Source: Elsinoe ampelina (taxonomy: Eukaryota). From it: DNA of 64,000 bases. Both the position numbers and the translations under genes were made by a program. Location: NCBI GenBank assembly GCA_010093995.1, contig ML992516.1, positions 123,413 to 187,412 of the forward strand, written 5' to 3'. The notes under the pieces were generated by a model. The model ran no database searches. It was given only the letters and a program-made list of their open reading frames with translations, and was not told the DNA's origin. Below are positions 12,401 to 40,800 of this stretch, piece after piece (the first letter of the stretch is position 1; each line of letters opens with the position of its first letter).

Positions 12401-13390
12401 GGTAATAAGTAGCTAGTAGAGCTTAGCGTAACAAAGCCTTTATTAAGGTATTTATAGATAAATTACTCTACTATATTAAGCTCCTCGGGGGATAGGTGCT
12501 ATAGGGGTTCTATATATAGTAGTTTAGTACTATTCTTAAGTATAATCTAGTTGTCGAATCCCGGCCGATATAGAGGAAGAGTATTAGATTATTCTTTAGA
12601 GAAGACATTAGTAAATTCGTATAGCTCTTCTAGAAGAACTACTATAGGATCTAGTTCTAGCTTAGAGACTATCTAGTAGTAGTCCTCGATATTCTTTACT
12701 AAGATTATAAACACCTCGTTCTTTTAGTATTTAGCTACTAATATAAAGGCAGCTACGCCGATAAAGGTAATAGTTAGCTCTTTCTATTTAGCGTTACTTA
12801 CGTAGGCAAGTAAGTAGAAGAACTTATATATTAACTAAGTACTATAGGAGATTAGCTTAAACTCTCTCTAATTTAGCTTAAAGTTCGACCTAAAAGCTAG
12901 TAGCTAATATAGTCTAGTTCGTCCTAACTTAGTAGCTAAGCTAGAACTAGTGTAACTATTAGGGCAGAGTTAGGGCGGCTAAAGGCCGACTCCGGTGCTA
13001 GTACAGAGCTATTCTTAGCGAGTTAGCACCTAGTGCTAAACTAAATAGCACTAGCTCTATACTCTACTATATTAGCACTAGTACTAGTACTACGCTAAGC
13101 TATACTAGTACTAGCACCGCACCGTAGTTAAGTAAGAATAGTACTACACTATAATAGCGCTATACTATACTACGATAGTACTATACTAAATTAGCACCGG
13201 GGTTAAATCCTAGTATTATACTACGTTATAGTACTACGCCTTAGTTAGGCTTTAAGGCGACTATAGTTACTATACTATACTTTAGTATTATAATAAGTCT
13301 ATAGAAAGGAAATTTAATAGTCTAGTCTATGTAAAAATACACCTATCTATTTCTTATAGTCTATTCTTATAGCATTATAGAGGAGAGGTT

Positions 13391-13975
13391 TTACTAATTA
13401 GAGAAAGTAAGTAGGTAGTACTTATTATAATATTTCCTAGTAAGCTAAGAGTCTTTCTATATAATAGTATAACGCTTAGTATAGATAGCGTTAAGATTAT
13501 AGTCTACTATAGTTATTAGTATAAAGTATTATATATTCTAAATGTATAGTTAATATACCTTCGAAATATTCTACTAGTATTACCTTACTTGCTTCCTAGA
13601 GATACTTAATAGCATCTAGTATAAAGTATAAATCTTTACTTATAAGTGTTAACTTAATATCTTATATAATGTTATAAACAATATAGAAGAAGAGAAGCTT
13701 ATATATAAGAAGTTTAGTTATCTTCTAGTAGTAACAAATCTCTTAGAGAGTAATAGCTATATTATATTAGATATAAGACTATAAGAATTTACTATAAGAA
13801 ACTAACTACCTAGCTTAAACCTATAGCTCTTTACCTAGCAAATTTGTCTAGTTAATACTAGTCTAAATTTTGTTATATAACTACCTATAGTAGGCTTTTT
13901 AGTAGCAGTTTTCTTAGTGCTTTACTTTCTTAGCTTTACTCTTTTTAGAGGTGTTACTTGCTTCTTATAAGCTAT
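13391..13975 (-). pseudogene. Histone H3-like gene carried by the hAT element, RIP-disrupted, at least 2 introns (13757-13806, 13504-13558); stop position approximate
   Basis: Spliced translation: IAYKKQ...VKSYRFKLG/TITL*EICYY*KITKLLIYKLLFFYIVYNII*DIKLTLISKDLYFILDAIKYL*EASKVILVEYFE/DYNLNAIYTKRYTII*KDS*LTRK. It aligns along the whole histone fold with H3 ([31 protein letters not shown]...DLRF...[36 protein letters not shown]). Many mismatches are RIP-type transitions. Confidence 0.93.
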
Positions 13976-14349
13976 AGCTACGTAAATTTGTTAAATTAAT
14001 TATTAAAATTTATTTATAAAGGTAGAGAAGAGTAAGGCAAAAATACTAAGAGTAAGATATTAAGCCTTATTAAGGAATTTATAATAGTATATAGAATATA
14101 AATTTCGTATTGTTATTCTTTACTATAATAACTTTATATTAACAATATTAACAACTTTATATTAGTATAATAATAGGATTAATATCTATTATTACTTATA
14201 TTTCTAGCTACTCTATTTACTATATATATAAGGAATACTAAATTCTTCTTTTCTTATCTTCTCCTTATAAAACTTATATCTTATATCTTACTCCTTGTTA
14301 TACTTAATATTCTACCTTCTCTTATAAATTACTACTAATTCTCGATCTA

Positions 14350-15623
14350 TAATATCTACTAATCCTATAGATTAGTAAACCTTTAGTAAAGAGGAAGAGA
14401 TAACTAATGCTCTAGTAATTAAGACTAAAGAAATAACTAAGGAAGAGAAAGTAATCCTCGCTATAATAGAAGTAATTCTTATAGATACTTCTTATAGTTA
14501 AATACTAACTAGACTATAGGGTTTTAATTCCGAGGCTAATAAGATTAAATACTAGATTAAAAATCGCTCTTAGAATACTAAAACTTCTTACTATAGCTAC
14601 CCCCTTAGAATTCTATAGTAGAAAGTATAGCTTAGTAATACCTAGTAAGCTATTTAGTAAAGAGATTATACTATATAAGCTAGTATAAAGGAGAAAGCCC
14701 TTACTACTACTAGTAATACTAATTACTCTATAAAACATATACTTAAGACAAAACTTAAGAACTCTAAGGAATTCTAAGTAATATCTAATAAGGAGAAAGA
14801 AGCTACCTTCGATATAGTATATAAGAAGATAGTAGAGACTTACTATTATACCTAGTAGAGTAGTATATTTCTTATAGTACATTCTTATAGTATATCTACT
14901 AATTCTATATAGGGGAATAGTTAAAGGATAAGTTTATATCTATTTACTAAAAATAAAGTAGTATCTATAAAGCTAATACTCTTCTTTACTATAAGTAACT
15001 CCTTGCTAATTATATAAAGAAGATACTCTATAACAAGATAAACATATTCCTAAATTGCTAAGTAAAACGTCTTCTTAGCACTAGTAGAATTCTTAAGAAA
15101 TAGATCTATAAGATCTACTATAATAGTGTTAACTTACTATATAATACTAGTAACTATAACAATAGTAACTAAGCTAAGTTTAAGAAGTTTATTAAGAATA
15201 TAACACTTACTAAACTCTAAGTAGTATAAGTAGATAATTAAGTATATATTATTTCTTATAGTTGTTTCTTATAGTTATATACTAATCTATTAAAGCAAAT
15301 ATAAACCTACTTCTAAATTAGAATTTAAGTATAAGAATAATAATATTTTACTTAAATCTAATAATTACTATATTAAGTATAGTAATAACAAGGTTAAAGA
15401 AGAAGTTAAGAACAACTCTAAGATTAAAAACCTCTTTAATAAGAAACCTAACAAGTATAAGACTAAGGAAGTAGCTAAAATATACTATAAGGTAGTTACT
15501 ACTAGGGACTTTAATAATTCTAATAAAGAGAATTAGGATAAAGATAATAATAAGGCAATAGATAAGAGTAATAATAATAATAAGGAAAGTAAAAGTAAGA
15601 ACAATATAGATAAGAATAAATAG
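14350..15623 (+). pseudogene. Second hAT cargo gene, unknown function, three GT-AG introns (~14472-14519, ~14860-14912, ~15242-15295), N/K-rich (probably D/E-rich pre-RIP) C-terminus; start approximate
   Basis: Coding-like purine-rich frames separated by ~50-nt segments with a GT donor, CTAAY branch site and AG acceptor. Divergent from the H3-like gene. Confidence 0.6.
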
Positions 15624-15799
15624 ATTAACCTTAAGTTAGGAAAATTAAACTATAGTTTTAGTAGCTTTCTAGTTCTACACTATTAAAATTTTTTTAATCT
15701 ATAAATTAAGAGTAGCTAACGGATTATTATAGAGTATTTTTATAGTCTTCTACTCCTTGTTATATAGCTAGTAATATTCTATATTTCTACTTTTAAAAT

Positions 15800-18430
15800 G
15801 TTAGTATTTAATAAAGACTTAGTTAATTCTTAACTATAGATACTCTTAGAAGTTATTACGCTACTACTATCTCTCTCCTACGAGCTTAAAGAGTTCTATA
15901 TTAATTACTAGAATAATCTATTCTCTACTTAATTCTATAAAACTATTAAAATTATTAGCTGTCTATCCTACTAACTAGATATACTACTCGAAGAATAGCT
16001 AGCTATATAAGCCTAGAAAACATAGTAGTCTATAATATTAATAGGTAGCAAATTAAGAGTTAGCGGAATACGAAACCTACTAAACTAGAATTCTATAACC
16101 CGCTATAGAGTTATTTAAGCTAACTTTAATAAAGGTGCTAAGCTTACTAATAGAACACCTCTTATGTATTGTCTCTACTATAGTAGAGCTTTATAACACC
16201 TAACAACAAACTCGATTAGTAATAAACACCTAATAAAACATCTTAGACGCTAAAGCTACTAGAATATAAAATCTCCTAGCTATAAATAATTAGTAGCTTA
16301 GATAGCTCTAACATAATTAAAAGTAAACGCTACTAGTACTATATTCTATATACTATAATTCTCCCTAGAACAATTTAAAAAAGAGCTTATTAAGGTCCTT
16401 ATTAATTGTAATTAGTTATTCTAAACAGTTAATAATTTCTCCTTTCTCTAATTTATATATTTCTTCTAGCTATATACTAATATTCTAGGTTAGACGCGAG
16501 CCTTAGAGCTATTAAAAGAGCACTATAAGGACATTTAGTCTAATCTTCTTACTAATCTTAGTAGTTAGACAAAAGTTTTAATTACGCTAGATAGCTAGTC
16601 TACGAATAACTATCTAAGTTTTATAGCTATAAAGGTATACTATATTAATAACAACTAGTAAGTATATAAGTACCTACTAGATTTTGTACTAATTAGTAGA
16701 TAGTATACTAGAGTTATACTCGGCACGGAACTACTAAGAGTTCTAAATAAAAAAAAGATTAATATATATCTTCTCGCTATTATAATAAACAATATAAGTA
16801 ATAATAACACTCTATAATCTAAAGTATAATAAGGTCTTAAGAAGAAGAGTATATACTAGTTCTCTATTAAGAATATAATTCTATATCTAGCTTATGTAAT
16901 TAATCTTATTATATAAGATATTATTTAAGCCCTATAGCTAGAAACTACCGAGGACGATAAGAAAGCTAATAAGCTTAAGAAGTAGTATCTCTATAACATC
17001 TAAATAACTCTATTAGTTCTAAATTCCCTCTATAAAGTAAGTTATATTTCTTATAGTTCTTTCTTATAGTTTTTTAACTAATTTTAAAGCTCTATATAAT
17101 TTATATTATAATTAACTAATCCCCTTAACGCTACTAATACTTTAAATCCCTTTAAGTATATCTACCTCCTTATAAATAACTCTTAGTCGTTTAAGACATT
17201 TACACCTATTAGAACTTAATATATAATATATATAAGCGAGCTATTAAACTTTAACTAATTATTAATAAATAGCTTAACGTAGAGATTATAATTGCATATA
17301 AGCCCTAAACTAACAAAGCGCTAGCTAATTAAGACATAGCATCTATTAATTATATAGATATAAAACGCCTTTGCCTCGGCTATACCGAATAGGCATATCT
17401 AAAGATTGTCGTCTAAATACTAGAGAATTTTAAGGATATAACTAACTAGCTAAGTTAGTCTTACACGCTATTAGTACAATATATATAGCTTATATATAAT
17501 ACTCTTTTTAACTTTCTTAATATAGTTAAGTCTACTTAGAAAGAGAATAATAACTTAGACTAGCTATTAGTTATACAAAATGTAGCGAAAGCTAGTTATA
17601 CTAAGCTTTCTAAGTATTATAAGTAAACGAGTAGAGGTTAAAGTTTCTTATTTAATTACGGTATAATCTTAGATTTAACTTAGAAACTTAGTACGTACGA
17701 GTATGCTTTATAGGAACTACATTTTAAATCGCTTTACTATAAATAGTTCCTTAACTACCTTAATTACTATAATAATAACTACTCTTCTTAAACTACTCTT
17801 CTACCTCCTCTACTAGCCTTGTCTATTACTTACTAGTTTAAGAAGTCTTTCTTATTAAACACGAGGAGTAGCTTTATACCTCTAGTATTTAGCTAAGATA
17901 ATATACTTTTATAAGAGTAGAGTAATATCTATATAATAAGGATAGAAGGGGAGAATTACCTTAGAACTTTACCTATATAGGAAATATTAGAATTTAATAT
18001 TCTTTCTTAGTAGAAAGAAAATAAGCACTTATTCCTATAACTAGCTTATATTACTTGTAATGTTCTTATAATACTAATCGCTAGCGTAGGTGTTAAATAT
18101 ATTTTTAATATAGCGAAGAATATTATTAGTAATTAAAGGTATAGACTACTTCCGTAGATAATTTAACAAATTATAGTCTCTAAGCTAGTAGAAAACAATC
18201 TTTAAAACATCTAATCGGCTAAGACGGACAATTTTACTACTACTAATAATAATACTAATAGCGGAATAGATAGTATAAGTAACAACTTTAGAGATATTAC
18301 TACCTATAGTTTAAGCGATAAAGAGGTTAATAAGGAAGAAGAGTATAATAAGGACAAAGATCTACTATATAACGTTACTAAGGTTAGAGGCTAGTATTCT
18401 AAGCGTATCTAGTTAATAGCCTCTAAGCAA
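15800..18430 (+). pseudogene. hAT transposase, RIP-disrupted (boundaries approximate; intron 17037-17089)
   Basis: BED-finger-like region at ~16160-16250. ITLDS*STNNYLSFIAI (first catalytic D, ~16580), LAIIINNISNN (TDNASNN, ~16775), ILYLAYVINL (CxxH, ~16880), V*DIYTY*NL (DxxTRWNST, ~17190), **KENKHLFL*LA...IASVGVKYIFN (C-terminal dimerisation domain, ~18010-18110). Confidence 0.93.
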
Positions 18431-19887
18431 TAACGCTCTTATAGTATCTATACTAATATCTACTCTAAAGCACTTCCGCGCGTACCTTCCCTATTACTAT
18501 ATATAATTCTACCTACTAATACTAATAGTCTCCCTTTGTTAGCTACTCTAAGGAAGCTTATTCCCTTACCCGCTAGTATCTTTAATATAACTATATTCGT
18601 ATCTACGTTAGTTGTGCTAGATCCGCTTATAAAAACGTTAATAAGGAAATTATATAGATCAACTATAATATAAAGGCTAAAGCTATAACTAATCTCCGCG
18701 CTACTCTCCTTATTATTGACCTTAATAACTACCTCCGCTACGGCACCTATAACCTTAGCTAACTTATTACTAATACTACTCTCTATACTATTACTAATAT
18801 CTACCTTATTATGCTTCTAACTTTCTTACTAGGTTTAAGCCCGATAATAGTTAAGTTACTTTCTAGAATAACACTAATAGTAAAGGGAATAACGAGGGAG
18901 ATACTTCTACTACTAGTACTAATAGTGCTACCTAGAGTAGTAATATAACTACTAGTGTAGCTAGAGGTAATATAAACACTTCTACTTTAAGAGCTTATAT
19001 ACGCTGTTATTATAGTTAATTTTAGTCACTTATAGAAAGAGGCAATGTAATTAAGTCTTTATAAAGTATAAGTCTATATTATTAATAACTATCTAAAGCT
19101 ATTAGCCTACTAACACTTTAACTACACTACCTTAATTAGATTAGTTATTAGAAGAAACACTATTATTACTATCGTCGATATAATCTAACTCCTCCTACTT
19201 ACGTTTAATATTATAGCGTATAGTAAAGAGCAAGAGTAGATCTACTCTTCTGCCGAGAATAAGACAATTAATAGTACGCTATATATTAATTAGGTTAAAG
19301 ATGTTATTAGTCTATAAGATATTATACTAATATTTATTAGATTATAGAGAAAGATTAGATTAGAAACACTTATAAAGTTATAAGGGGTATTATAAGTATA
19401 GTAGGCTTTATAGCGAAGTACCGAACCTCTATAGTTATTATAGATATATTTGGCTTAGATTTTGTAGTTATTATTAAAGTTAAGATATATAAGAGTTATA
19501 TAGCGGATATAGGCTTTATACTAACGTAGGTATAAAGGCCTAGTATAGTTACTAGAAGTTATCTTATAAGGCTAAAAGGGAATTAGATCTACTAGGTCGA
19601 GGTAAAGTTAAGTATAAGAAGAAGGCATTATAGAAGGAGGTATTAAACGACAAGAAAGAGAAGTTTAAGAGGAAGAAGGAGAAATAGTAACTAAAAGATA
19701 TATATATCTAGCGTTACCTATTATAAGAACAACAATATAGATAATAGCTATTATCTATTATAAAAAAACAACAATACTAATAATAGCTATTATTTAATAA
19801 TAGCTATTATTATACTAAGGAATATAAGTAGATTATTAGCTAAGTTACTTCTTTCTCTCCTTAGAAACATTTAAACAACTATCTAGT

Positions 19888-20370
19888 ATGCCTTTACGTT
19901 GCTATAGTATAACTTATACTAACAGTTACTAGAATTTAAGCAAATCTACTACTATGTCTACTACTTGCCTCTCTATTATTTATTAGGCTAATATTACTTA
20001 CTATAAATTTATTAACAACCTTTAGGCAGAGATTAAGGCCCTAGACGGCCTTATACTTACTATTAACTAGTAATCTAATAGTATTAAGGCAATCTATAAC
20101 TATACTATAAGTTAGTAGAAAGGCTAAACTACCTAGAACTAATTATTCTAGTCTTAGACTCTACCTAATAGCTTTAGTACTCCGGTTTACTAGTTAAGAG
20201 TTATAATTTATATAAGGGTAAACTTACTAAGGATAGAATATCCTCCGGATAAAGTAGATAATAAAATAATAAGGTATTAGTTCTAGGTAGTGTATAGCTT
20301 GCTAGCTAAGTATATAAAATGGACTTATAGGGGTTATATAGATAATGTTAATTAGGTTAATCTTCTATAA
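19888..20370 (+). pseudogene. Possible additional hAT cargo ORF, unknown function
   Basis: ATG at 19888 and a ~160-codon frame interrupted only by TAA/TAG stops compatible with RIP; no recognisable homology. Confidence 0.35.
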
Positions 20371-23136
20371 ATCACTATTAGGTTATAATTGTATATAAGG
20401 GTTAATAATTAATAACTTTTGCTTCTCTCTAGTATTCTTTACCTACTATAACTTTAAGCGTTTAGAGCAGAAAAGTAATAAGAGTTATAGGATATAGTAG
20501 CTACTATAAGAATTTACTATAAGAATAGCAACCCTAGTATAGTGCTAGTAAGAGTACACTAAGGACTTAATAGTACTACACTACTTATCTACCGACCTAA
20601 CCTAGCACTATACTACGTCTAGAATATATACGACCCAACCTGCACCTAGTGCTAGTGTAGTACTATTATAGCTATAGTACAGAGCTAGTACTAGTACTAC
20701 TAGGCCCTTAGTAGCACTACGCTAGCTAGAGGCCGACCTAAACCCTAGTATAGTACTAAACCTAAAGGGGCTAACCTTGCCCTAATAGTTACACTAGCTA
20801 GAACTTAGTTTACGAGTTAGACTAGAACCGAACTAGTTCTAAACTAGGGCGGCGACTTTACTAAGCTAGATTCCTAGATCCGAGCTAGACTTAGATCTAG
20901 ATTCTAGCCTTTTAATTAGCTATAGTAGCTTCTACTTAATAACTGTTAGCGAAAATTCTTCTTTATATATAACTTAGCTATGCTTATAGTTAATAGTAGC
21001 CCTATTAGCCTTAAGCTAGCCGAGGCTAAGAATAATATCGAATCGGCTAATATTTATAATATAAAAGGTACTAAGGTTATTTAGCTTACTAGAAACGGTA
21101 GTAGTAAGAGGAACGCTATATATAACTTACTCTATTAGAACACTATTATAGGCTTAAAGCTAAATAGAACTAGCTAGTGCTACGGGGCAGCCGAAGCTCT
21201 TTAGCTTATTAAGAACATTATAATTAACTATAGCGCTAATAAGCGCGCTAGTGTTAATAAAGGCTTAAAGTATAATAGTGCAAGAGTAGTTATAAGAGTT
21301 GTAAATAGTAATAGGAGTTATAATGGCGGGGATATAGTAGCTAACGACGCTATTTAGTAACTATATATCTCTAGATCTATCTCGAATTACTCTTATTCTA
21401 CTAGAGAATAGAACTTGTCCTCTAGCTACTTATTTCTCTAGCTAGAGTAGCTAGTAGACTTATAGTCTATTTCGGGGTTAAATTAAGGCTAAACTAAATC
21501 TAGTTCGTAGGCCGAACTAGTATTAACCTAGTTACTTAATTTAGCTAAGCGATTCTAAAGCTACTATATCTCCTCTATAGCGCTAATACATATAGAGCGT
21601 ATAGTAGCGTAAGTAGCCTTCTCTAAGGTGCTAGCTATATACTTAGTAGAGATATGTCTAGGCTTGCCGCATATATAATAGGTAAGTACTAGAGCTAAAT
21701 AGAAAGGCTATAGAGCACCTCTAGTAATAGAGTAGAAGGTAGGCGGAGCTATAGGCGTAAAGGTAGAATAAGGTACGTAAGTAGGTATAGTAGCGGCGTA
21801 GCTTATAGCTAGTATAGAATATAAAGCCTAAGTGCACTTAGTAATAAGGTTATTCTATCGAATGTTATAGTTAGTAGCGTAGGCCTTAGTAATAAAGGCA
21901 ATAAGGTTATTAGTTTCGTAGTTAACTAGAGCATTACGTAGCTTGTTAGATATCTTCTAATAGATCTAGTATAGCTACTCCTCTTTAGCAATCTTAGCGT
22001 AAAGGGCGTACTTATTAAACTTGCTAATAAAGAAGTTAAACGTGCTATTACGCTAGAAGAGGTTAGTAAACTAAGTATATATAGTGGCCCTATAGTTAGG
22101 ATCCTTAAAGCGCTAAACTAGAAGAGTAAGAACCTCTTCGACGCTAATAACGTTATTACTAGCTAAGTCTATAACAAGAGTATAGGCTTCTCTAGAGAGG
22201 CGTAAGTATAGATAGGTAAACTAGGTATCCCTTATAGAGAAACAATCTACGTTAGTACGTATCTTATTCCTTATCTAGTGCTTAAAGACCTTAAACTACT
22301 CCGGTGTACCCGTGCTAAAGATAGTAGAGTCTAGTATCTTTTCTAACAAGGTAGAGCTACGTATAGAAAGGGCTAGTATACTACGCTTTATCTTGTTTCT
22401 TAGTTAGTTTACCTTAGCCTTAAGCTCTTAAATTTTGTCTAGGTAGCAAGTAGCTTAGGCAGTAACGCTATTAGTATAGGACTAAGATACGTCTAGTTCG
22501 GATTAGAGGTTACTAAGCTAGGCCTAAGTAGTATCTAACTTATAGTAATAGTAGAGAGCGTTAGTATAAGTGCCTTTTACCTACGTAGTTTACTTATTAT
22601 AGAAGGACTTAATATAGTTAAATACGTCTCTTAGTGCCTATATACTATACTCTTCCTATAGCTTCTTAAGGAGTATAGCGTTAGAGAGAGTAAAAAGATT
22701 ATAGTAGAGAGAGTAAATAGAGGTATTATTATTATTAGGAATAGGTTAAGGTAGCTTACTTTAGTAGCGCTCTTTATTGCTATAGTTAGATCGAGCTATA
22801 CTTAGCATAGTTAGTCGTAAATAAAACAGTGTAAAACATTAATATATAACAAAGGGAATATTAAAATTTTTAGCTAGTAGTCTACTTTCTTTAAGAGTTG
22901 TCTATAACTTAACTTATTACCTTCTTCTTATATCTTTAGGGTTTATAGTATTAACCTATATAGTAGCAGCGAGGATCTATTATAGTGTACGCGGGAACTA
23001 TAGTTATAATAGCTTCTTCTTTAATTCTTTAATTCTTTATAAGTAATAGTTATTAGTAGTTACGTAAGTAGTAGAATAACTAGATAGTTTAATAGCTCTA
23101 TTGCTTAGTTACGGTTGTTTCGAAGTCTCGATATAG

Positions 23137-28344: not shown

Positions 28345-30571
28345 CTAAGTGGCCTTCTCGCCATCAGTGCTGCTCTTATCGCCATCATCCTTCCCACCAG
28401 CCTTGACCTCCTCCCTGACGACTTCCTCTCCCTTGAGAGTCCTCCCCTTGCCGGTAACATCCCTGTAGATCGCCCTGGTGGTTCTCATCATAGTGAACCT
28501 GCCCTCCCAGAGAGGATAAAGGCCGACGCAGAATGTGCTGATGAACAGCCAGATGAGGCCAACCACGATCCAACCAGTGAAGAATGGTCGGCTGAAAACG
28601 TAACCACTGCCGTACAGTGGCATCGGCCAAAGGATAAGAAGAGCCAATGTAAGTACCACGCAAATGACTCTTGCAATCTTCGCCGACTTGTGAAGCTTCT
28701 CCATCTCCGCCATCGCTTCCTCAGACGACTGGCTGTGCTCACCAGGGACTTGTTCGAGGTCCATTGATGCTGCCGCCGCGAGATCGCTGTCGTCGCCTTT
28801 GCGAATGGCAGCCATAGACTTCCAATCATATTTGCCAGAGGGGAAGACGAAGGTGAGGACTGGGACGAATAGCATGGGTGAGAGGAGCGCAACGACGTTG
28901 CCGACAAGCATGGGGTTGTTGGCACCTGTGACTTCGACCGTGAGTGGTCCTTCGCGGGAAGCTTGTACGAGCCAGCCTGTGAGGGAACAAGCGAGGGCCA
29001 AGGGGGGCGAGAAAGTAGCGGCTGCCCAAGACTGACGCTCCCAGAGGAGAGTGAGCGAGGCTGGAATTACGGCGCCTGAGATGATGACACCCATCAGCAG
29101 ATAAAGATAGCCCAGAGATATGCCCGCGTAATAAAGTCCGGTCGAAAAGCCTGCCATGACCGTGGCGAAAACCACGCAAGCCATGTGAGACGTCCAAATT
29201 AAGCGACGTCCGGATGCTTGGGGGTTGATGTAGGTCTGATACACGTCGTAGGTAGCAATGGATGATACTGCGATGAGCTGAGCAGACATAGCCGAGGTTA
29301 CCGCCATGAAGACGATGATGAGCACAGCGGCAGCGCCACCAGCCCCGAGAAGAGCGACAGCAGCCTCTGGTAGGACGAGACCTGCAGATACGTCTGCTGA
29401 GGCCATTCGTTCGGGGTACGTTGGCCAACTGGGGTCGCCCTCGAGAGAAAGTGCCGCCAGTCCCATGGCCGTGGCAGCCAACCAAGGAATGGCAAACCAA
29501 CTCAAACCACCCATTACGTAGCCAGGAAGTGCATTAGACACGCCCGCGGCAATCGCCTTGTTATAACAGAGGGGTTGTTAGTAGATGTGATGATTCCTTA
29601 AGGTGGTCTGAAGACTTACTAGCCATTATCCATGAAAACCGTTCCAAAGTTGCCAATGATGTTGATAACGAAGAAGATGCCACCCTCTCGTGATCTCATA
29701 GTCAAGTAGCTGCCTTGGGCATTGCCCTCGACCGGGTGTCTTTCTGCTGCCGCCCTCAGGGCGTCCCAAACCCGACCTGGGCTGCCCAGGATCGAGTTGG
29801 TGGCGTAGGTCGAGAATGAGAAGATGAAAAGAATGACCAAGATGACGACAGTGTGCACGTAGTCAGTCAGGAACGTCGCCTTGATGCCACCAAAGACTGT
29901 GTAGAGCACTACTCCAACTGGGAGGAGAAAACAAGCTGCAGCGGTCGGGACGCCGGTAAGTGAGTTGGTGACGGCAGAGCCGCCAGCGAGCAACATGGCG
30001 GTGACGAGGATATTAGTCATCAGGGCGAAGACCATAAAAACACCGTGAGTGACTGGTCCGTACCTTGCTCGGATGACTTCGAGGAAGGTGTGGGCGTTGG
30101 GAGCGCGGCGCTTGAGCTCAATCGCAATGGTAGCGAAGAGGATGATTTGGACGGTAGCACCAGAAGCATACCAGAATGGACCACTGACACCATATCTGTA
30201 CGCGACTGCGGATGATTGGAGTACTATGATACATCAGTCTGCAGTCTTTTGCCCAGCACGTGACCGGAGTTCTCACGAGTAGCGGCCCAAGTCCACGAAC
30301 TAACGACCGCGGAAGCAATCAGACCAGTCTTTACGGTACGGCCTGCAGTGCTGAAGACCTCGGAAGTCTGCAACTCGTTGTTGTATCTCCTCAAAACATA
30401 GGTGGTAAGCATCATGCCAAAGCTGTTCACATATAAGCTACAACCCACCCCAGCTCGTACCAGCACATAAACCTACGCGAACAAAAAGCCGAGGCCAACA
30501 ATAACACCGTAGCCCACCGCCTGGCTAAGTGGTGGCGGCCTGCCAGAACCTTGACCAATTCCTCCAGCCAT
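28345..30571 (-). CDS. DUR3: Urea active transporter (sodium:solute symporter family), multi-exon
   Basis: [76 protein letters not shown] motifs over several exons. Confidence 0.95.
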
Positions 30572-30768
30572 GTTGACGATTGTGACAAGAAAAGCGCAAG
30601 AAATTCCTTACTTTCACAAGCTTGCTCAACCTACCTGGGCCCTTGTCATGGTAATATAGCAGACGGCCTAAGCATGCTACCCCTCGGGCATTGAAGATGG
30701 GGTCCGCCATGCAGGGCGGGCAAAGGGACAAGAAAGCTGGGTCGTGGGGGTCAGAATGCTTGGGCTTT

Positions 30769-30880
30769 GATAAGAGGGCAGAAGCACGACAAATCGCTTG
30801 TACTGCCGAAGATAGCTTGCGTTCGGCGCGTGCATTTCAGTGGGCTGGTAGTATGCAAGTGTCAATTGAGGAAAGATAAG
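30769..30880. promoter_or_regulatory. GATAAG sites upstream of DUR3 (candidate AreA/NIT2 nitrogen regulation)
   Basis: GATAAG at 30769-30774 and 30875-30880, 200-310 bp upstream of the DUR3 ATG. Confidence 0.4.
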
Positions 30881-31334
30881 GATATGTGCCTACCGATTCT
30901 CCCCGTGAATTGACCAATCAGAGCAGGGATCTTGTTGATTGATGTGCATTCCCGATATCGGGCAGAGAGCATTTCGTGCATCGATTGTGTCAGAGCTGGT
31001 GTCTATCAATTCATGCTCACGTGGTAGTTTTGATCAGTGGGATGGCTAGTTCATGCTCGGCGGACCTGAAGATCTTGATGGCGTTACAATGGCGTTCAAT
31101 CTTCGCTACACTTTTATCGCTTTGTATGGTACTATGGTAGTCAAGCAGCCGGCCAAGAGAGATACTGCAGTAGCGGCGCAAGTGCAGGTACAGTAAGCAG
31201 ACATCTCCGATCCGGTAGAATGGTTGATTGAGACGTGACAACCTCTACTGGTCCTCCAAGCATAGACTAGTAACATGTTTTACTAGCACCAAGCCCGCCA
31301 CTGAGAAAGTGCCATCCTCGCATGCAAGTAAAGT

Positions 31335-32595
31335 TCAGGTCGCCCACTTCCAGACGGTGGTGCTGCACTCCACCTCGTTCGGCGCATCGTCGCTGCCCCA
31401 ATCATCAAGACCTATCTCTTTCTCCTCAAGGAGAAGTCTGAGCCCAATCGATTTCATCTGTTCAGTGAACAATGTCCTTTCCTCAACGTAAGCTTCGCGA
31501 ATAGGAATGCCAATGATGACCCTCGCGTCGGGTGTTCGTTTCAGATGATATTTGATGGCGTTCACTAGTAGGACAGGGTGATCCATGGAGTAGATGGGAT
31601 CTGCAGCCACTATCACCAATGCTTCCAAGCTGGTGGTAGGCTTGGCTGCAGCGTGGGTGAACTGCTCGTGGGTGTACCCTTCATCCTGCACCTGCAGGAG
31701 ATTTTCGGGTTGCGACCAATCCAAAACAGCCACATCTGCAGAGGCACCCGCAGCTTTGACTATGTCAGAGTTGTCTCTGACATTGCGCGCTAGATTCGAC
31801 GCTATCAATGGGAGATCTGTGAGAAGGATCCGCACACCTAGTACAGCAGCAGCAGCGATACCCACAAGCCCAGTGCCACCGCCCAACTCCAACATCAACT
31901 CTGGATGGGCAGCATGGCCAGGTCGACACAACTGCACAGCGGGGATCTTGGTTGCAAGACTTGCCCAGTTCCGTGCTAGAACGTATGATGCCGCCCATGT
32001 TTTAAACCCAAGATTGTCGGCGGTGAGAGCAGGCTCATGGATGGAAATCTCGACTTGTGGAGCTTCCTCTGCTGCGATCGCTTCGTGACTTCCGGAGTCC
32101 CCTTCTACACTTCCAACCAGCTGTGCAGACAGTGGTACCAAGAAAGTCCTTGTGAATGAGCCCATGGCTGTCCGTCCTGACCTCTCGCTCAACCTCACAG
32201 CTGCCGTGTCCCATATCTTTTCTTTCTCTGCATCATCTTGTATCCACGCGAGCCGGCTGGAGACGATCTTCGTCAAATATTGTGGTACCCCATCCGCCTG
32301 GACTTTTCTCTTGGGGACTCGTGCCGGTGTGGTGGTTCCACTTGCGGGTTTAGGAGTTGCTCTACCGGGTGTCCGAGGAGGTGTCACATCCCATGATCGA
32401 GACTCGATGCTCAATAAAGCTAATGTGTCGAGCAGAGATTTTGCAGTCGGTCGGTTGTGTATCTGGGGTAGATCATGGACTGTATGGGGCAGTCAGTGTC
32501 CCATTCCTACTCCTGATAGTACTTAACTCACCATGCAACGGCTCCTCCTCGAGAGCATCCAAGCCAAGATCCTCTCGAGTCAATCGCTGCTCCAT
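31335..32595 (-). CDS. SAM-dependent protein-lysine methyltransferase (Rrg1/METTL21-like); one 5' intron
   Basis: LSERSGRTA, IHEPALTADNLGFKTWAAS, LELGGGTGLVG motif I, TDLP, LDW, AADPIY. Confidence 0.85.
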
Positions 32596-32788
32596 ACGAT
32601 GGTACGTGACAATGTCTGATTGCCATTGACTGGTCGAGCCGCAATCTCCTTGATGCATCTCGCGGGGTCAAGGAAATTTTGAGCACGGACCATACGTTCT
32701 CGACCACTGAATCTATGCGGGATGCATATGCCACACGTCCAGGACTCCATGCAAGACGGACTTGAAGGTTGGCTGGAAGCTCCAAATC

Positions 32789-33611
32789 TCATCCTAGGAC
32801 TGACTTGAAACCATTGTAGGCTTGTTCCATGTCGAGTTTGAGCTCTCTAGCCTGCTCAGGGCTCAGTTCCTCTGCAGCTCGCATCTGATTCAAAGTGATA
32901 AGCCATTGGACGATCTTGCCCTTGTTCTCGAAATCATGATCGGTGACTCGATTGACAGCTTGAATCGCTTCGACCAGAATGGGATGTAGAGTATCCTTCG
33001 AAAGCATGTTCATCTGAATGGCGTCAAGCAAGGTGATGAAATTCTCCGAGGCGGCGACAATATGTGTAGCTGCAGCATTACCTCCGCCACCACCAGAGGA
33101 TTGATTTGCGGATCGCCCAGAAGGAGCTTCGACTGTAGCGGGGAGTCCAATCTTGAGCCGCTCAGTGGCACGTGGGGCATCCAGCTAATGCATGTCAGTC
33201 AGAGCGATGGGACTCGACGTGAGATTACTGACATCCCATTCTTCCTTGAAGCTATCGAGATCTCTGAAAGCTCTGGACACGTTGTCATCCGAGAGGTTGG
33301 ACTTGTACTGCTTGAGAAGACGGCTACATGTTTCTGTGTACTCGTTCTCGGCTACAGAGTCCTTAAGGTAGGCCTTCTCCAGTGCTTCAAGCGTAACTAT
33401 AATACTGTATATCTCTGCGAGAGATTCATATAGATCGCGCTCGGCTGCATTGGTGGCAAGTTTGACTTCCTGTTGGGTATGAGAGGCGGCCACCAAGTCT
33501 CCGTTGAGGTTGACCCACCTCGTCCGGATTTATGGTCACTGACAAGTTGCTCGGTGTATAGCTGTATGGGGTCGGAGCGTACGCCAGTTGCTGTGGGTGC
33601 TGGGAATACAT
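32789..33611 (-). CDS. VPS28: ESCRT-I subunit Vps28 (two introns)
   Basis: ERDLYESLAEIYSIIVTLEALEKAYLKD, SKDTLHPIL, KIVQWLITLNQMRAAEEL. Confidence 0.96.
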
Positions 33612-33857
33612 GTCCGTGAGCACGCGAATTTAAGATGGAGGAAGAGGCACACCAAGGCGAAGAAGAGAGGAGGCCAGTGCTTTCTCAACACAGGCGTGCG
33701 GGGCTTGTCCGCAGAGCCGCCTCGGAGATGCCAAGGATCTGCGGAGTTTGCGAAATAATTTTTGGGTCCATGAGCAGATGGAGATTTTCATACTGACTGT
33801 TTGTCATCGCATATCCCTTCCCTTCCCCGTTGCCTATAACGACGGTCGACGCTCAAA

Positions 33858-36146
33858 ATGGCACAGAGCAAGGCAACAAAGAAGTTCGAGAGAAATCATC
33901 TCAAGGACACGATCAAAAAACGAAAGGACTCCGCGAAAATCAAACAGCGACATGCGGTCAACGCAAAGAAGAAAGCCCGGAGAGCTGCTGATACTCGAGG
34001 CGGTGCCGAAGAAGAGGAGTCAGCCAACGGTGCGCGTTCCAGGAAGCAAATCAAGGACGCAAAAGATGCCGCGGACTTTGAGAACATGAACATGGACGAT
34101 TTCTTTCAGAGTGGACTAGAGCTTGAGTCAACGACAGATAAAAGCTCGAAAGGGAAGAAGAGGAAGCGAGGGGACGAAAACGGCACGACAGTCGTAACGC
34201 CACAGTCCGACAGTGAGGCTGGATCGGATTCGGAAGACGAACAGGATCTTGAAGGTCACAAGGATCAGCTAAAAGGTCTAGCAGAGAAGGATCCCGACTT
34301 CTACAAATATCTCGAGGAGAACGACCCCGAGCTGCTCGACTTGGAGCAGGCCGACTTTAACGACCTAGAACTCAGCGCAGACGAGGAAGAAGATGAGTCG
34401 ACCTCCAGAAAGAAGCCAAAGGGCGAAGAGCTAGTCGTGGATAGCGGTGAGGTATCAAAAGCTTTGCTCAAAAAGTGGGAGAAATCTCTGGTCGAGCAAC
34501 ACTCCCTCAGAGCTTCGAGAGAGGTTGTACTGGCATTTCGAGCAGCAGCACATTCAGCCGATGAAGAAGACAAGTCGTTCAAATACAGCGTGTCTAGCCC
34601 AGAGGTCTACCATGAACTGCTGGTATTGGCGCTCAGTCGGGTTCCAGAGGTACTTCAACATCATCTGCCAGTCAAGGAGTCTGCTTCTGGGAAGATTCGT
34701 CTCTCGACTGAATCAAAGAAATTCAGCACGCTCAGTCCCTTGATCAAATCATATCTTTCGTCTCTGGTCTATTTACTCGGATATCTCACGGATGCATTGA
34801 CCCTACGATTGACTCTCACATCGATTGAGACGTTACTGCCTTACACACTTTCGTTCAAGAAGCTGGTCCGAGATCTCACAAAGAGTGTGGTCAATATTTG
34901 GGCAACATCATCATTCGCAGACTCGAGTCGATTGGCAGCATTCCTGGTCCTTCGAAAATTGATTGTGATCGGTGACCCAAGCATTCGAGAGAATGTGCTC
35001 AAAGCAATCTACCAAGGATTCGTCAAAGGCGCTCGGAACACAACAGTGCATACACTGTCGGGAATCAATCTTATGAAGAATTCGGCAGCAGAACTGTGGG
35101 GTCTCGACTCAGGTATAGGGTACACATCAGGGTTCAACTTCATCCGACAGCTTGCTGTACATCTGCGTAGTACCATCACCAACAATTCCAACGACTCTTA
35201 CAAGCTAGTCTACAACTGGCAATATGTCCACTCGCTGGACTTTTGGTCTCGCGTCCTCTCCATGCACTGCGACAGTCTGACGGAAGCAAAAAAGGGCCAG
35301 ACTTCCCCTCTTCGACCACTCATCTATCCCGTCGTGCAAGTCACTCTCGGCGCACTCCGTCTGATCCCAACAGCAGCCTACTTTCCTCTCCGCTTCCACC
35401 TCACCCGCTCTCTACTCCGCATATCCTCCGCCACAGGCACTTACATTCCTATGGCAGCCACGATGCATGAGGTACTCCAATCCGGCGAAATGCGCAAACC
35501 TCCCAAGGGTAGCTCACTCAAAGCTCTTGATTTCGCCGTCACTATTCGCGCAGCCAAATCCTACCTTGGCACACGCGTGTATCAAGACGGGATAGGCGAG
35601 CAAGTCCAAGAACTACTCGGCGAGTTCTTCGTTCTCTGGGCGAAGAATGTTGCTTTTCCGGAGCTGAGCCTCCCTGTCATCATCTTGCTGAAGCGATGGC
35701 TCAAGGAGATTGGACCGCACAGTAAACACCCCAACCAGAACAGTAAAGTAAGCGGCATGATCGGATTACTGGTGCAGAAGCTGGACGCAAATTGCAAGTG
35801 GGTAGAAGAGAAGAGGGCAAAGGTGGAATTTGCCCCGAACAACAGGTCAGGTGTGGAGGGCTTCTTGAGGGAAGTCGAATGGGACAAGACTCCCCTGGGA
35901 GCATTTGTTAAGGGCCAGAGGAGGGTAAGGGACGAGAGGGCGAAGGTCATGGAGCAGGCACGGAAGGAGGAAGAGAAGAGTCGAATGGAGGAGCGGAACG
36001 GAGGAAACGAGAAGGGCGTGAATGGAGGGAAGAAGGGGCGAAAGGCAACGGGTGCCAGCGATGATGAGGGTGACGAGGAGGATGCAAGTGACGACGCGCT
36101 TGAGGAGGATGACGAAGACAAGACGATGGATGATGATAGCGAGTAG
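33858..36146 (+). CDS. NOC2: Nucleolar complex protein 2 (60S biogenesis)
   Basis: KATKKFERNHL N-terminus, LAEKDPDFYKYL, YNWQYVHSLDFW, FPLRFH, AFPEL; divergent from VPS28. Confidence 0.96.
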   Translation: MAQSKATKKFERNHLKDTIKKRKDSAKIKQRHAVNAKKKARRAADTRGGAEEEESANGARSRKQIKDAKDAADFENMNMDDFFQSGLELESTTDKSSKGKKRKRGDENGTTVVTPQSDSEAGSDSEDEQDLEGHKDQLKGLAEKDPDFYKYLEENDPELLDLEQADFNDLELSADEEEDESTSRKKPKGEELVVDSGEVSKALLKKWEKSLVEQHSLRASREVVLAFRAAAHSADEEDKSFKYSVSSPEVYHELLVLALSRVPEVLQHHLPVKESASGKIRLSTESKKFSTLSPLIKSYLSSLVYLLGYLTDALTLRLTLTSIETLLPYTLSFKKLVRDLTKSVVNIWATSSFADSSRLAAFLVLRKLIVIGDPSIRENVLKAIYQGFVKGARNTTVHTLSGINLMKNSAAELWGLDSGIGYTSGFNFIRQLAVHLRSTITNNSNDSYKLVYNWQYVHSLDFWSRVLSMHCDSLTEAKKGQTSPLRPLIYPVVQVTLGALRLIPTAAYFPLRFHLTRSLLRISSATGTYIPMAATMHEVLQSGEMRKPPKGSSLKALDFAVTIRAAKSYLGTRVYQDGIGEQVQELLGEFFVLWAKNVAFPELSLPVIILLKRWLKEIGPHSKHPNQNSKVSGMIGLLVQKLDANCKWVEEKRAKVEFAPNNRSGVEGFLREVEWDKTPLGAFVKGQRRVRDERAKVMEQARKEEEKSRMEERNGGNEKGVNGGKKGRKATGASDDEGDEEDASDDALEEDDEDKTMDDDSE

Positions 36147-37893
36147 ATGTCGCAAGTGGAGGAGCAATTATCTGTTGTACTCTGCCGAGCCATATCGGCA
36201 GGGGTTCTAAGAGAGGACATTGCGCACCCGCGATGCTTGCGTGCGCGGTCGGTGACCCCTGAGGTTCACGCCAAGTGATGCAAAAAAGATTGTCGGTGCT
36301 GCACAATCTGGCATTGTGTGATGATACCTTGCAACAAGCTTGTCGCGTCTGCTGTCAGACGTCCATAATTTCCCCTCAATCATGGGCGAGAATAAAATTT
36401 CCCTGGCTCGATATGCGGCTCCTGTAACATCGCTCTTGACAGTCGCCTCAATCGAAAACACGTGCCACGATGCTTCTCAAAGACCAAAGACGTCGAATGT
36501 AGAGTCATTGGAAGGTTTATTGTTCCTCCCTAGTGGCCGCCACGCGATTAGGGGTCATCGTACAGTATAAAAAGCTTCCGGCCGGGATTCGCTATTCTCG
36601 GCGCCGAGATGCAAAGGCAGAGTGTTGCTCGCGCCAAAAACGTGTCGAGCCCTAAGGTCGTAAGCAGCAGAGATCGACAGCGAGGAATGGAGAAAGGGAA
36701 ACAAGACGCGTGGGACAGGCATGATCTGCTCCCCACAAAGCGCCGATCAGGAGATCCAGACAACAACAGGCTTTGGATGTTTGGAGACGAATTTTCTTTT
36801 GTGAACCTGATGTTATGTACATCCTCATGATGAGGAGAAATACCTACCAGCTCATAGGAGGGAAAGACATTGTAAAGACTTGCGACTCGAGAAGCATCTT
36901 GGAGAAGGCACTTTCGCAGATTCCAGGCACAAGGGTCGATTTGTCCGGGTGAATTACTGCCCACGTTTTGCCCGTGCTTCCCGTCCATTTCCACAACCGA
37001 GACTGGCAATTTTCCGAACGTGAACGCTTTGCTTGGTAGTTCTTTGAAGAAAGAATGTTTGTGCAGTGGCGAGCATCACGATGATCGCAACAGTCAGACG
37101 GGGATGAATAGATGACCATCGATCGATCCCATACCACCAAGACTCTACCCCTCTCTTAAGCATATCTCGTAAAGGCCGTACCAGGTACAATTAACACTTG
37201 CGGCTCTAACGGGAGGAAGAATTTTGGGGGTGTGGCGAACGGACAAGCTAACCACTAGCCTAAACACAGTTTGGTGCTGCCACGCCTGGAAAGAGTCAAG
37301 AAGAAAGAGGACCGTTGCACTTTCAACTCCAATGCTCTTGTCCTTCCTGTTCACTCTTGCGCCCTCCCTCGCCCTCGACGTTCACTCCCTGCATGAGTTT
37401 GCCGTTCCTTTCGGGGCAAGACCGACTGGAAAGACTCGGACATCAGCCAATTGCCATACGTTTCTGCCGCCACGCACGCTAATGCAGGTCGACCGCTTCT
37501 GCTGAGTTGTGCAACTTTCACTGGACTGTTCTGCCAATATTATCCTCGGCGTCAACCCTTCGACTGCTCTGTCAGCTTTCCCTTATTCTGGTTTCTGCAC
37601 TTCACTCCTTCGACTCTTGGTGGCTTGATCGCTCGATAATACTTCTATCCAACGTGTGGCCTGGTTCCTCAGACATGGGCTTGGTGATTGCGACACAATC
37701 AACATTAATCTCTGGACCGTTGGTCAACGGCGTTTAGCTGATCTCGTGGTACGCGAGAGTCTGACACTCGAGTTTTGATCATCAGTGTTACACAGACAAG
37801 GCAGCGTAGCACACGGGTCACATATACCATCGCAAGAGTGGCTATTCTCGATTCAGGAGCCCTTTGGGCATAGAGTTCGTACTTCGGTCGAAC

Positions 37894-40800
37894 ATGAGGA
37901 TACCTATCAGAGAGCAGCTGGCGGCTTTGCTACTGCTCGCTTCGGGCGTGGGACTTGGTGTCATTGCAATTGCGACATGGGTAAGTTATTGAAGCGCTGG
38001 AATACAGGTCATGGCTGATACTTTTCAGTACACCAACTACAACTTTGTCCTCGGCGTACGCGCTACTCGACTTGCTATATCAGCTTCACTAAAGGCTTCC
38101 CAACTAGCCTCAAACCTTGCCCTTCTCGAGAATAGCGTCCAATTCACGGCGAGTCGCCTTTTGGTTCAAGACGCTCTCCAGCGCTACAATGACGATGATG
38201 ATAACAGTGCAACGAATTGGGAGCGAGCAATACCGGATATGCAGGCGGCAATAGGTGGGCCTGCTTCTGGCGGTGCTGTTGGAAACTCACTTCTTCTTCA
38301 ATCTCAGATCCGACCGAGAACGAATACGGGTTCAGCTGGGAATGCACCAGTCATCAACACCACAAGTCAGGAAATAGTCGGTCGAGTCAAACTTCCTTGG
38401 ACCTACCCGAACGGATCCGATGTCTATCTTGGAGACGATGATTTGGGCTATCCGCCGAACCTTTACCCGAATTTCACATACGGAAACATTGTAACGTCAG
38501 ATGGTACCGAAGTTGCTACGGCGGATTATCAAGGCGATGTGATAAGTCCAGTCAGGAATCAGGCTCTACTCCTTGGTCCATGGCAGATCAATTCGACCTA
38601 TTCGATACTTTCACTCACGCTACCGATTATCAACAACACTTCTTCGCTTCAAGTCCTTGGTTGGATATCTGTTTTGATGGACGCAAGGCTTATCTCGAAT
38701 GTTATCAACATGCGGCAAGGGCTGGATCGAACAGGACAACTACTCTTGATCCGACCAGTCAACGAAACCAACCAATATCCGCCTGGCGTGATGTACGACA
38801 GCGGCCCTGATGCGAGTATCTACAACAGCGAACAAGTCCAATTCATCCTCCCACTGAGTGCCAATTCGACGAGGCATCCCGGTCGAACACAAGGCACTGG
38901 TAATCCGCCTTTCCAGATGTCCGACTTTCCCTCATTAGTGCAAGCGGTCACGAAACAGCAGAATAGCGAGAACAATGCCGGATCAATCATTGCTGCAAAG
39001 AACGAAGCTGGTCTACCAGTATCTTGCGGATTTGCCATGGTCAACGTGCCTTTTGTAGACTGGGCAGTTATGGTCGAACAGGATCGAGAAGAAGTCTGGA
39101 CACCAATCGACAGATTACGGAACGTCATCATTGCGTGCTTCTTCGGTACTATGGGTGCCATGGTTCTAATTGCATGGCCCCTTGCGCATTTTGCCAGCAA
39201 GCCTATTCGAGATCTCAAAGTGGCGACACAAAAGACAGTCATGCCCGCTGGGTACACCGATAGTAGCGAAACACTGGGAGGGTCCGAGTATGACGATGAT
39301 ATGGACGGGTCAAGTCCGCAAGCAAATGAGATAGACGCTGCAGTCGCCCGGAAGGAAGGATTCTTTGCAGCAGTTTTGAGAAGACGGAAGCGATCAAGAT
39401 CAGATAATACCGAGGAGCGAAGGCGACGACATTTCCGAATACCTGGCAAGGTTCCGGACCGCAAACATCTTGTCAAGGACGAGTTATCAGATTTGACAGG
39501 GACATTCAACGAGATGTCCGACGAGTTGATGATGCAATACGAACGACTAGAAGAAAGAGTACGGACGAGGACTGCCGAATTGGAATTGAGCAAGAAGGCC
39601 GCCGAAGCTGCAAATGAGAGCAAGACATTGTTCATCGCCAACATCTCGCATGAGCTCAAAACACCATTGAATGGTATTTTGGGCATGTGTGCAGTATGCA
39701 TGCAAGAGGACGATCCGATTAGGCTGAAGAGATCGCTTGGGATCATTTACAAGAGCGGAGATCTGTTGCTGAATCTGCTGACAGATCTCTTGACTTTTAG
39801 GTATGCTTCATAGTAAGGAGACATGAGACTGTACTGACATATGAACAGCAAGAATCAGGTCGGCCAACAACTTTCACTGGACGAAAAGGAGTTTCGACTT
39901 CGTGACATCAGCTCACAAGTGCTCGCTATCTTCGACAAACAAGCAAAGGACAATCAAATCGACCTCAGCGTTCAGTTCCAAAACAGCCTAGGCGAGATCG
40001 AGGGCAAAAATGCAGTCGGGAACAGAGTAAAGGACATGATCTTGTGGGGCGACACGCATCGCATTCTCCAAGTCATCATCAACCTGGTATCGAACAGTTT
40101 GAAATTCACTCCGGCACAAGGCAAGGTCACATTGACAGTACGATGCTTGGGGGAAACATCAGATGTCGGCAGCCGCAAGACGAGTCTGGGGTCTAGGACA
40201 TCTCGACGGAACAGGAATCGTCTCTCCGACTTGTCTGGGCCAGGTGGAAGGACATCTGGATCTGCTGAGGGTGGCTCCTACAGTGGTGGTGCCTTCCAAC
40301 GTATCATCGACGTGGACCGAGCAACACCTCCTCCTGGAAAGACATTCATGTTCGAGTTTGAAGTGGTCGACACCGGTCCTGGTATCCCGGAGAATCTCCA
40401 CCAACGTATCTTCGAGCCTTTTGTTCAAGGAGATCTCGGTCTCTCGAAGAAGTATGGGGGTACAGGTCTTGGTCTCAGCATCTGCTCTCAACTGGCTGGA
40501 CTGATGCACGGAGCTATGAGCTTACAATCGGAAGTCGGACAAGGCAGCACGTTTATGATGCGTATTCCTCTTCGACATCTGGTATCGAGAGCAGACAGCA
40601 CAGCATCAAGCAATGTGTCGCAGAATGGTGACGCCATCTCATTCTCGGGAAGCTTTGGTGGAGGAGATGGGTTTGGCACTCCCAAGCGACAAAGCATGCT
40701 CATCGATAATGCTTCGGTATCATCCATCCCCGGGAACCTCGGCCCTTCGCCACAAGCACAGCAAAAAGACCACTTTGATCAATCCAATCAGCCTAGGCTA

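Follow-up and report, generated by a model that had tools for sequence, protein, structure and literature searches.

The 64,000-nucleotide stretch of Elsinoe ampelina contig ML992516.1 analysed here (hereafter the window) contains at 12948-20796 a 7,849-bp segment which, taken as a whole, is very probably one copy of a once-autonomous hAT cut-and-paste transposon that carried a spliced histone H3-like gene (H3L) and was rendered inactive through repeat-induced point mutation (RIP). The segment has matching ends, a target-site duplication (TSD) of 8 bp together with an empty site elsewhere, a two-exon transposase gene, a three-exon H3L, related copies that have diverged by transitions and a base composition of the RIP type. 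Since hAT elements with an H3L were published in 2013 and 2019, this kind of element is already known from related plant-associated fungi, and the novelty implied by an earlier reading of the letters alone (the sequence-only reading) was overstated. New here are a family with a new terminal inverted repeat (TIR) in at least two organisms, the introns of H3L and a repeated intron motif with a period of 12-13 nt. The concerted, lineage-specific pattern of this motif in orthologous introns is the most unusual feature seen.

The left and right ends of the element pair at 19 of 19 bases or, counting two transition mismatches, at 24 of 26, and the 8-bp duplication expected of a hAT insertion is present on both sides without a mismatch (Table 1), so that the TIRs and the perfect TSD claimed by the sequence-only reading were both confirmed. 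Short hAT TIRs start with the consensus YARNG, to which the opening TAGTG conforms. At the composition of the AT-rich block, 0.012 inverted 19-nt pairs are expected by chance, and 4e-7 in which direct flanks of 8 bp match perfectly as well. In DNA run X1 (organism A), one contig jumps from 12940 to 20798 and omits 7,857 bases, 8 letters at the joint being compatible with either side; since the joint omits the element and one copy of the TSD, the flanking repeat has a further copy in which the site is empty. The summed X1 contig depth of the flanks (12500-12947 and 20805-21300) was approximately 29,600-46,000, in comparison to approximately 7,000 in the element, and this roughly fourfold difference indicates that the hAT landed in an older repeat of higher copy number. 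The short repeat TAG[CT]ACTA was found in 18 copies in the element, 15 of them within approximately 400 bp of the ends and 3 in the 7-kb middle, a clustering which fits predicted hAT subterminal binding sites. When the element was compared with the window by blastn no second copy was found, the only matches being the intron units and a 35-nt palindrome described below.

The transposase coding sequence extends from approximately 15798 to approximately 18394 and contains 77 stops in 850 codons. The C-terminal domain typical of hAT transposases, PF05699 (Dimer_Tnp_hAT), was recognised in 17093-18400 at E 3.4e-8 (33.6 bits, where the cut-off requires 21.4), and it was the only family reported when the six frames of the whole element were scanned with Pfam (one of six frames, E 1.9e-7). 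Exon 2, with its stops written as X, was used in a HMMER search against 1.84 billion representative proteins and gave 77 relatives at E≤1e-3, of which 14 reached ≤1e-10 and two of these ≤1e-30, the best at 1.3e-41, which bears out the hAT transposase of the sequence-only reading; PF05699 was present in five of the six relatives scanned. With relative P0003 (723 aa) as the query, tblastn matched two segments in different frames, 16089-17039 and 17084-17710 (E 2.8e-48), the frame shifting from mod 0 to mod 2 across the intron. After removal of 17037-17089 the spliced transposase aligns without gaps over the joint to P0033 (..LTLKK/LRKIAVAVNASPKR..; here and below a slash marks the joint) and to P0067. 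Transposases of the hAT type possess an RNase-H-like DDE catalytic core with an insertion domain; the putative core of this stop-riddled copy aligns to P0003 with the E-value just given and to P0033 over 648 columns. A C-x2-C..H-x4-H pattern, a candidate for the N-terminal BED zinc finger of hAT transposases, is present in P0003 and P0033 and has a RIP-mutated counterpart in the element, recognised by eye and without a Pfam zf-BED match.

A segment at 16430-16488 had also been taken by eye for an intron, a view that was given up when the segment proved to align with P0003 as coding sequence; by-eye intron calls in such DNA are therefore unsafe. P0003 itself, an unmutated relative, has 16 extra residues (403-418, VFIFITHSYHKLTHLQ, V first and Q last) exactly at the position of the transposase intron of the element. 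Its gene model may have read through an orthologous in-frame GT..AG intron.

H3L lies on the minus strand (13975 to 13394), 450-1,030 bp inside the left end and directed towards it. The translation of 13400-13979, with stops as X, matched H3 chains of solved structure (E 9.4e-5); the match spans H3 residues 45-122 and contains a 5-residue loop-1 insertion. This likeness indicates the descent of H3L from H3. All of the best 60 of 160 PDB chains matched by the exon 2 region at E≤1 were H3, and for exon 3 a phmmer search of the PDB gave H3 or CenH3 in the best 60 of 123 chains with E≤10 (residues 108-130). In the converse direction, the top two tblastn matches of canonical fungal H3 in the whole window were exon 2, at E 6.6e-5, and exon 3, at E 0.079, adjacent and colinear in different frames, and no second H3-like copy was found in the six frames. 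Removal of intron 2 accounts for the change of frame between exons 2 and 3. Removal of intron 1 fuses ..VKSYRFKLG, which lies upstream in a third frame, to TITL*EI.. and restores the colinear match. For the N-terminal half, a reading upstream of the intron in frame -2 proved wrong, the PDB alignment having placed this half otherwise. The spliced H3-like gene near the left TIR was thus found where the sequence-only reading had put it, with two introns instead of one and with the loop-1 insertion of 5 aa and the divergent tail that it had described. An H3-like coding sequence stands between hAT TIRs, as in other H3L-carrying hAT elements; in this RIP-mutated copy it cannot encode a histone.

Several results weigh against this picture of the element. 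Exon 3 alone is not significant (best E 0.21 in the PDB, 0.079 with tblastn). The Pfam Histone family (PF00125) stayed below its cut-off on every exon, exon 2 reaching 13.1 of the required 26.4 bits (E 0.12), and it was not reported in the scan of the six whole-element frames. Exon 1 alone gave no Pfam match. Neither zf-BED nor DUF659 was detected by Pfam in the element or in the relatives scanned, so that of the three domains for which the sequence-only reading had proposed a profile check the hAT dimerisation domain was recovered, Histone remained under its cut-off and zf-BED was not detected. Word-index protein searches with transposase exon 2 and with the H3L region returned nothing; RIP probably destroys the exact words which such searches need, also in the case of the 18463-18813 frame mentioned below. 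Finally, the TIR has 0 occurrences in the accessible parts of supplement 2 of Dhillon et al. 2019 (PMC6710886) and differs from all seven consensus ends given there, so relatedness to the published elements is judged from gene content and from intron positions read by eye.

Table 1. Features of the hAT element and its insertion site, in window coordinates
Feature	Positions	Strand	Remarks
Left target-site duplication	12940..12947	.	GCTAGAAC, identical to 20797-20804; 8 letters of the X1 joint 12940 to 20798 fit both sides
Left terminal inverted repeat	12948..12966	+	TAGTGTAACTATTAGGGCA; imperfect extension to ~12973
Left subterminal repeats	13031..13237	.	TAG[CT]ACTA, 8 copies
Motif-bearing intron-like unit, left	13330..13402	+	GTAAAA..TTCTTATAGTCTATTCTTATAG..TACTAAT..AG; outside recognised genes
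H3L exon 3	13394..13503	-	H3 residues ~106-135 and short extension; stop 13396-13394
H3L intron 2, 55 nt	13504..13558	-	GTATAT..TACTAAT..TAGTAG; codon 106, phase 1; without the motif
H3L exon 2	13559..13756	-	H3 residues 45-105 and 5-aa loop-1 insertion LTLIS
H3L intron 1, 50 nt	13757..13806	-	GTTAGT..TTCTTATAGTAAATTCTTATAG..ATCTAAT..TATAG; codon 45, phase 1
H3L exon 1	13807..13975	-	Divergent N-terminal tail; ATA 13975-13973 may be a RIP-mutated ATG
Putative gene X	14382..15623	+	Three motif-bearing intron-like units: ~14472-14519, 14860-14912, 15242-15295
Transposase exon 1	15798..17036	+	Putative RNase-H-like core, CCHH BED-like motif near 16160-16250; tblastn to P0003 residues 91-402
Transposase intron, 53 nt	17037..17089	+	GTAAGT..TTCTTATAGTTCTTTCTTATAG..AACTAAT..AAAG
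Transposase exon 2	17090..18394	+	hAT dimerisation domain 17945-18181; C-terminus uncertain
Remaining internal sequence	18395..20450	.	117-codon stop-free frame, - strand, 18813 to 18463
Motif-bearing intron-like unit, right	20455..20545	-	22-mer identical to that of H3L intron 1
Right subterminal repeats	20540..20759	.	TAG[CT]ACTA, 7 copies
Right terminal inverted repeat	20778..20796	-	Reverse complement of the left end
Right target-site duplication	20797..20804	.	GCTAGAAC

The GC content is 0.20-0.36 across the first 24 kb of the window and approximately 0.52 in the remainder. The RIP indices of the element are 1.84 for TpA/ApT and 0.22 for (CpA+TpG)/(ApC+GpT), in comparison to 0.58 and 1.26 in the GC-rich part, and the AT-rich block is a RIP-mutated repeat compartment of a filamentous ascomycete. 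Contigs of run X1, at a likeness of at least 80 %, and of runs X3 and X4 (organism B, two studies) were matched to the element. The matching pieces numbered 5,431, 13,920 and 7,626 and covered 30, 29 and 29 of 30 bins, respectively. The copies differ almost exclusively by transitions, with 448 transitions and 11 transversions in X1 among the kinds of difference listed. The H3L bins (13382-13969) were covered in all three runs at a depth like that of the rest of the element, contig depth being a rough guide; H3L therefore belongs to the family, and the family is present in at least two organisms. The absence of H3L from other family copies, which the sequence-only reading had named as fatal to its proposal, was accordingly not what was found. 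In the contigs of organism B the coverage was near zero at 16028-16321 and zero at 18674-18967, stretches that may be divergent in, or absent from, the copies of that organism. No part of run X5, presumed to be RNA, matched the element.

Two papers describe comparable elements, and the statements made here refer to the accessible parts of their texts and supplements. Manning et al. 2013 (PMC3538342) reported a 5.6-kb hAT of Pyrenophora tritici-repentis (Ptr) in which an H3-like gene accompanies a transposase and a central open reading frame (ORF). Dhillon et al. 2019 (PMC6710886) reported RIP-mutated hAT elements of approximately 9.5 kb, with a TIR of 20 bp, a TSD of 8 bp and H3-like sequence in one or two copies; their hosts are Pseudocercospora fijiensis, P. 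musae, P. eumusae, Cercospora zeae-maydis, Sphaerulina musiva and S. populicola. The sequence-only reading had cited the cases of P. tritici-repentis and P. fijiensis correctly. The second paper found the Ptr element to have no likeness in nucleotide sequence to those of the Mycosphaerellaceae, and according to it the two H3L of an element differ by a 16-aa insertion, H3L has no introns and no other repeats were identifiable.

The present element resembles those of Dhillon et al. 2019 in being RIP-mutated and confined to AT-rich blocks, in its TIR of approximately 20 bp and TSD of 8 bp, in the transposase and H3L between the TIRs with a loop-1 insertion in H3L and, by eye in supplement 2, in both H3L intron positions, the position of the Pfi transposase intron and the tandem motifs of 12-13 nt. 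It differs in size (7.85 kb versus approximately 9.5 kb in P. fijiensis), in having a single, intron-bearing H3L where some of those elements have two, in a dimerisation domain that is detectable (none could be found in Pfi), in the lack of a detected DUF659, and in the introns and internal repeats read in it, of which none were reported in 2019. Like the Ptr element (PMC3538342) it is a multi-gene hAT whose TIRs enclose a transposase, an H3L and, with the putative gene X described below, an uncharacterised ORF; unlike it, the Ptr copies are nearly identical, un-RIPed and expressed, as seen from expressed sequence tags.

Inspection of the published consensus elements by eye (GT..branch..AG; PMC6710886) placed intron-like inserts at codon 45, phase 1, and at codon 106, phase 1, in the H3L of Czm_cons and Peu_cons and in the second H3L of Pmu_cons and Pfi_cons; in Peu_cons H3L likewise adjoins the left end on the minus strand. 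In Pmu_cons and Pfi_cons the first H3L lacks introns, and 2 aa are inserted in it after Q55. Two H3L paralogues, one intronless and one with two introns, thus seem to be present in Pfi_cons and Pmu_cons, and with two such types the statement that H3L has no introns fits only the intronless one. The H3L of the present element is of the intron-bearing type.

The motif pair TTCTTATAG-N3/4-TTCTTATAG occurs 7 times in the 64 kb, always within the element, in comparison to an expectation of 0.00 and to 100 shuffles of which none contained a match. The occurrences are in H3L intron 1 and the transposase intron, the two places in which the sequence-only reading had noticed a common intronic motif, in three units in 14382-15623 and in one unit near each end, approximately 400 bp from the left and 280 bp from the right end, both pointing inward. 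A RIP-degenerate form of the pattern gave ten matches, nine in the element and 0 in the GC-rich 40 kb. The orthologous introns in the published consensus (PMC6710886) also contain tandem units with a period of 12-13 nt and a family-specific sequence: seven GTAGCCGGCAGC units in H3L intron 1 of Pfi, two TAGCCGGCA units in the Pfi transposase intron at the equivalent ..LYK/L.. joint, three units in Pmu and two in Czm. The units form longer arrays elsewhere in these consensus elements. Where the present element has TTCTTATAG, the elements of Dhillon et al. 2019 have TAGCCGGCA, TAGTCGGCA or TAGCTAGC.

It could be argued that such units are scattered short tandem repeats, serving as a binding site or forming a minisatellite, which look like introns (GT, CTAAT, TAG) only through the AT-richness left by RIP. 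The by-eye intron at 16430-16488 that proved coding, the units 13330-13402 and 20455-20545 situated in no recognised gene, the long arrays of equivalent motifs that the Peu and Pfi consensus contain outside genes (PMC6710886) and the fact that no RNA matched the element, so that no splicing was observed, would all agree with this explanation. It is nevertheless unlikely, since removal of the units from H3L and from the transposase restores frame and colinear homology exactly and introns occupy equal positions in the consensus elements of other species (PMC6710886).

The three motif-bearing units between H3L and the transposase are situated in putative gene X. It has a K/N-rich open stretch at 15296-15620, a 110-codon frame with one stop. 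Attempts at a consistent exon model failed; its unit 14860-14912 breaks the frame required by the unit 15242-15295. No Pfam family was found in X, and when X, the stretch termed Y and the left-end stretch were compared by blastx with the 77 transposase relatives, no match had an E-value under 0.06. The multi-gene module proposed by the sequence-only reading is therefore verified for two genes, with a third plausible; beyond the two, 14382-15623 and 18.4-20.5 kb are without detectable relatives.

Similar introns spread over several genes call to mind the introner-like elements reportedly described in Dothideomycetes by van der Burgt and co-workers in 2012. As in that case, several introns of different genes are alike beyond their splice signals; unlike it, the similar introns all lie inside one transposon family and share a 22-nt tandem motif, not full-length identity. 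No host-gene intron in the 40-kb GC-rich part of the window contains the motif. A paper on introners (PMC5647799) does not mention hAT, miniature inverted-repeat transposable elements or terminal inverted repeats, nor does it mention tandem units.

The age of H3L was judged against a canonical fungal H3, of the Pezizomycotina type and translated from metagenome locus L016, which is not the H3 of the host itself. Over 100 aligned columns 45 residues are identical, 29 are reachable by RIP (C>T or G>A) and 26 are not, in agreement with the claim of the sequence-only reading that H3L differs from canonical H3 by more than RIP. Beyond the canonical protein H3L has the 5-aa insertion, a tail longer by 11 residues and a C-terminal extension. 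Five of the six stops in the aligned part stand opposite Q or R (alignment read by eye), the mark that RIP leaves in a previously intact ORF. Metagenome contigs scanned with a degenerate H3 pattern contained at least 116 H3 loci. The codon-45 intron position was found in none of these, and the codon-106 intron in none of the 102 readable ones, all of which run straight through LFEDTN; the other 14 of the at least 116 are incomplete or unclear. Eight Pezizomycotina-type H3 genes (L020, L027, L032, L037, L038, L096, L097 and L110) have an intron at codon 44, phase 1, which reads ..CCN G/GTAAGT..AG/GT ACC.. and fits site 18 of Yun and Nishida in the accessible part of that work (PMC3029354, Table S3, Fig. 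S3). H3L intron 1 sits 3 nt from this usual fungal H3 intron in equal phase, an offset that may reflect sliding of the intron, a new gain or a position peculiar to the host, and intron 2 has no counterpart among the 102 readable metagenomic loci.

Could H3L then be a recent passive transduplicate or retrocopy of a housekeeping H3 of the host, altered by RIP alone? Capture of an H3 transcript is the model published for P. fijiensis, intronless H3L copies were read in copy 1 of both the Pfi and the Pmu consensus (PMC6710886), and intron 1 is only 3 nt from the canonical intron at codon 44, phase 1. Such an origin is made very unlikely by the 26 unreachable residues of 100, by the insertion, the longer divergent tail and the C-terminal extension, by intron positions with no parallel in the metagenomic H3 genes and by the equal H3L structure in elements of four other species (PMC6710886). 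The 26 residues and the intron positions recurring in four species' elements instead indicate that H3L is an old gene of the element. The rejection of a recent capture by the sequence-only reading is upheld, the more so as those four species have different TIRs and H3L is covered in two organisms. The still weaker proposal that the H3 resemblance arose by chance from translating AT-rich DNA has a negligible probability: Pfam Histone is under its cut-off and the single E-values are modest, but canonical H3 has its two best matches in the six frames of the 64 kb side by side and in colinear order, H3 makes up all of the best 60 of 160 PDB chains, the stops fall at Q and R codons of H3 and such a gene is already published in related elements.

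H3L would thus be an H3 variant of long standing, adapted to the element, that has a tail of its own, a loop-1 insertion and two introns of its own, and it has probably travelled with hAT elements since before the published families diverged. That it was a tolerated hitch-hiker is an evenly balanced proposition. Retention because of its usefulness to the element, for example as a histone variant incorporated into the chromatin of the element or its target, is possible and can be put forward only tentatively.

A wider reading, which joins the gene to the motif, would regard H3L as an element-adapted histone variant about as old as the families, with the H3L and transposase introns built on a family-specific tandem motif of 12-13 nt that has a CTAYAG-type core and undergoes concerted evolution in each lineage. 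The motif might then be a cis-site for an element-encoded DNA-binding protein, which would tie splicing or expression to that protein, or it might be a transposon-borne minisatellite that seeds new spliceosomal introns. Taken jointly these proposals are rather unlikely to hold. If they did, the 2019 inference of a retrocopy from the lack of introns would be limited to the other, intronless H3L paralogue.

In the mechanism envisaged for the family, the transposase would bind the TIRs and the subterminal TAG[CT]ACTA repeats and move the whole unit, H3L included. Amplification of the element would trigger RIP, and RIP would turn Q, R and W codons into stops, killing all genes of the present copy.

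An intron-bearing H3L common to elements with unrelated ends would replace the accidental capture of a housekeeping gene by a transposon lineage that has possessed a histone of its own for a long time, and it raises a testable question on the conflict between transposons and chromatin. In their accessible parts the published consensus files appear to hold introns that the text of PMC6710886 denies, and this bears on the retrocopy model. The lineage-specific tandem motifs in orthologous introns may bear on the origin or regulation of introns in fungi known for introner-like elements.

In the remaining internal sequence (18395-20450) no relatives or families were found by the Pfam whole-frame scan, by blastx against the 77 transposase relatives or by a word-index search with the 18463-18813 frame. 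In the right third of the element, 39 nt at 19722-19760 are duplicated in tandem at 19761-19799 (82 % alike), and 19778-19812 forms a near-perfect 35-nt palindrome (97 %). Outside the AT-rich block, the GC-rich part of the window (24001-64000) has sharp local GC peaks in 1-kb windows, at 26-27 kb (0.61), 45-46 kb (0.60), 50-51 kb (0.67) and 55-56 kb (0.65).

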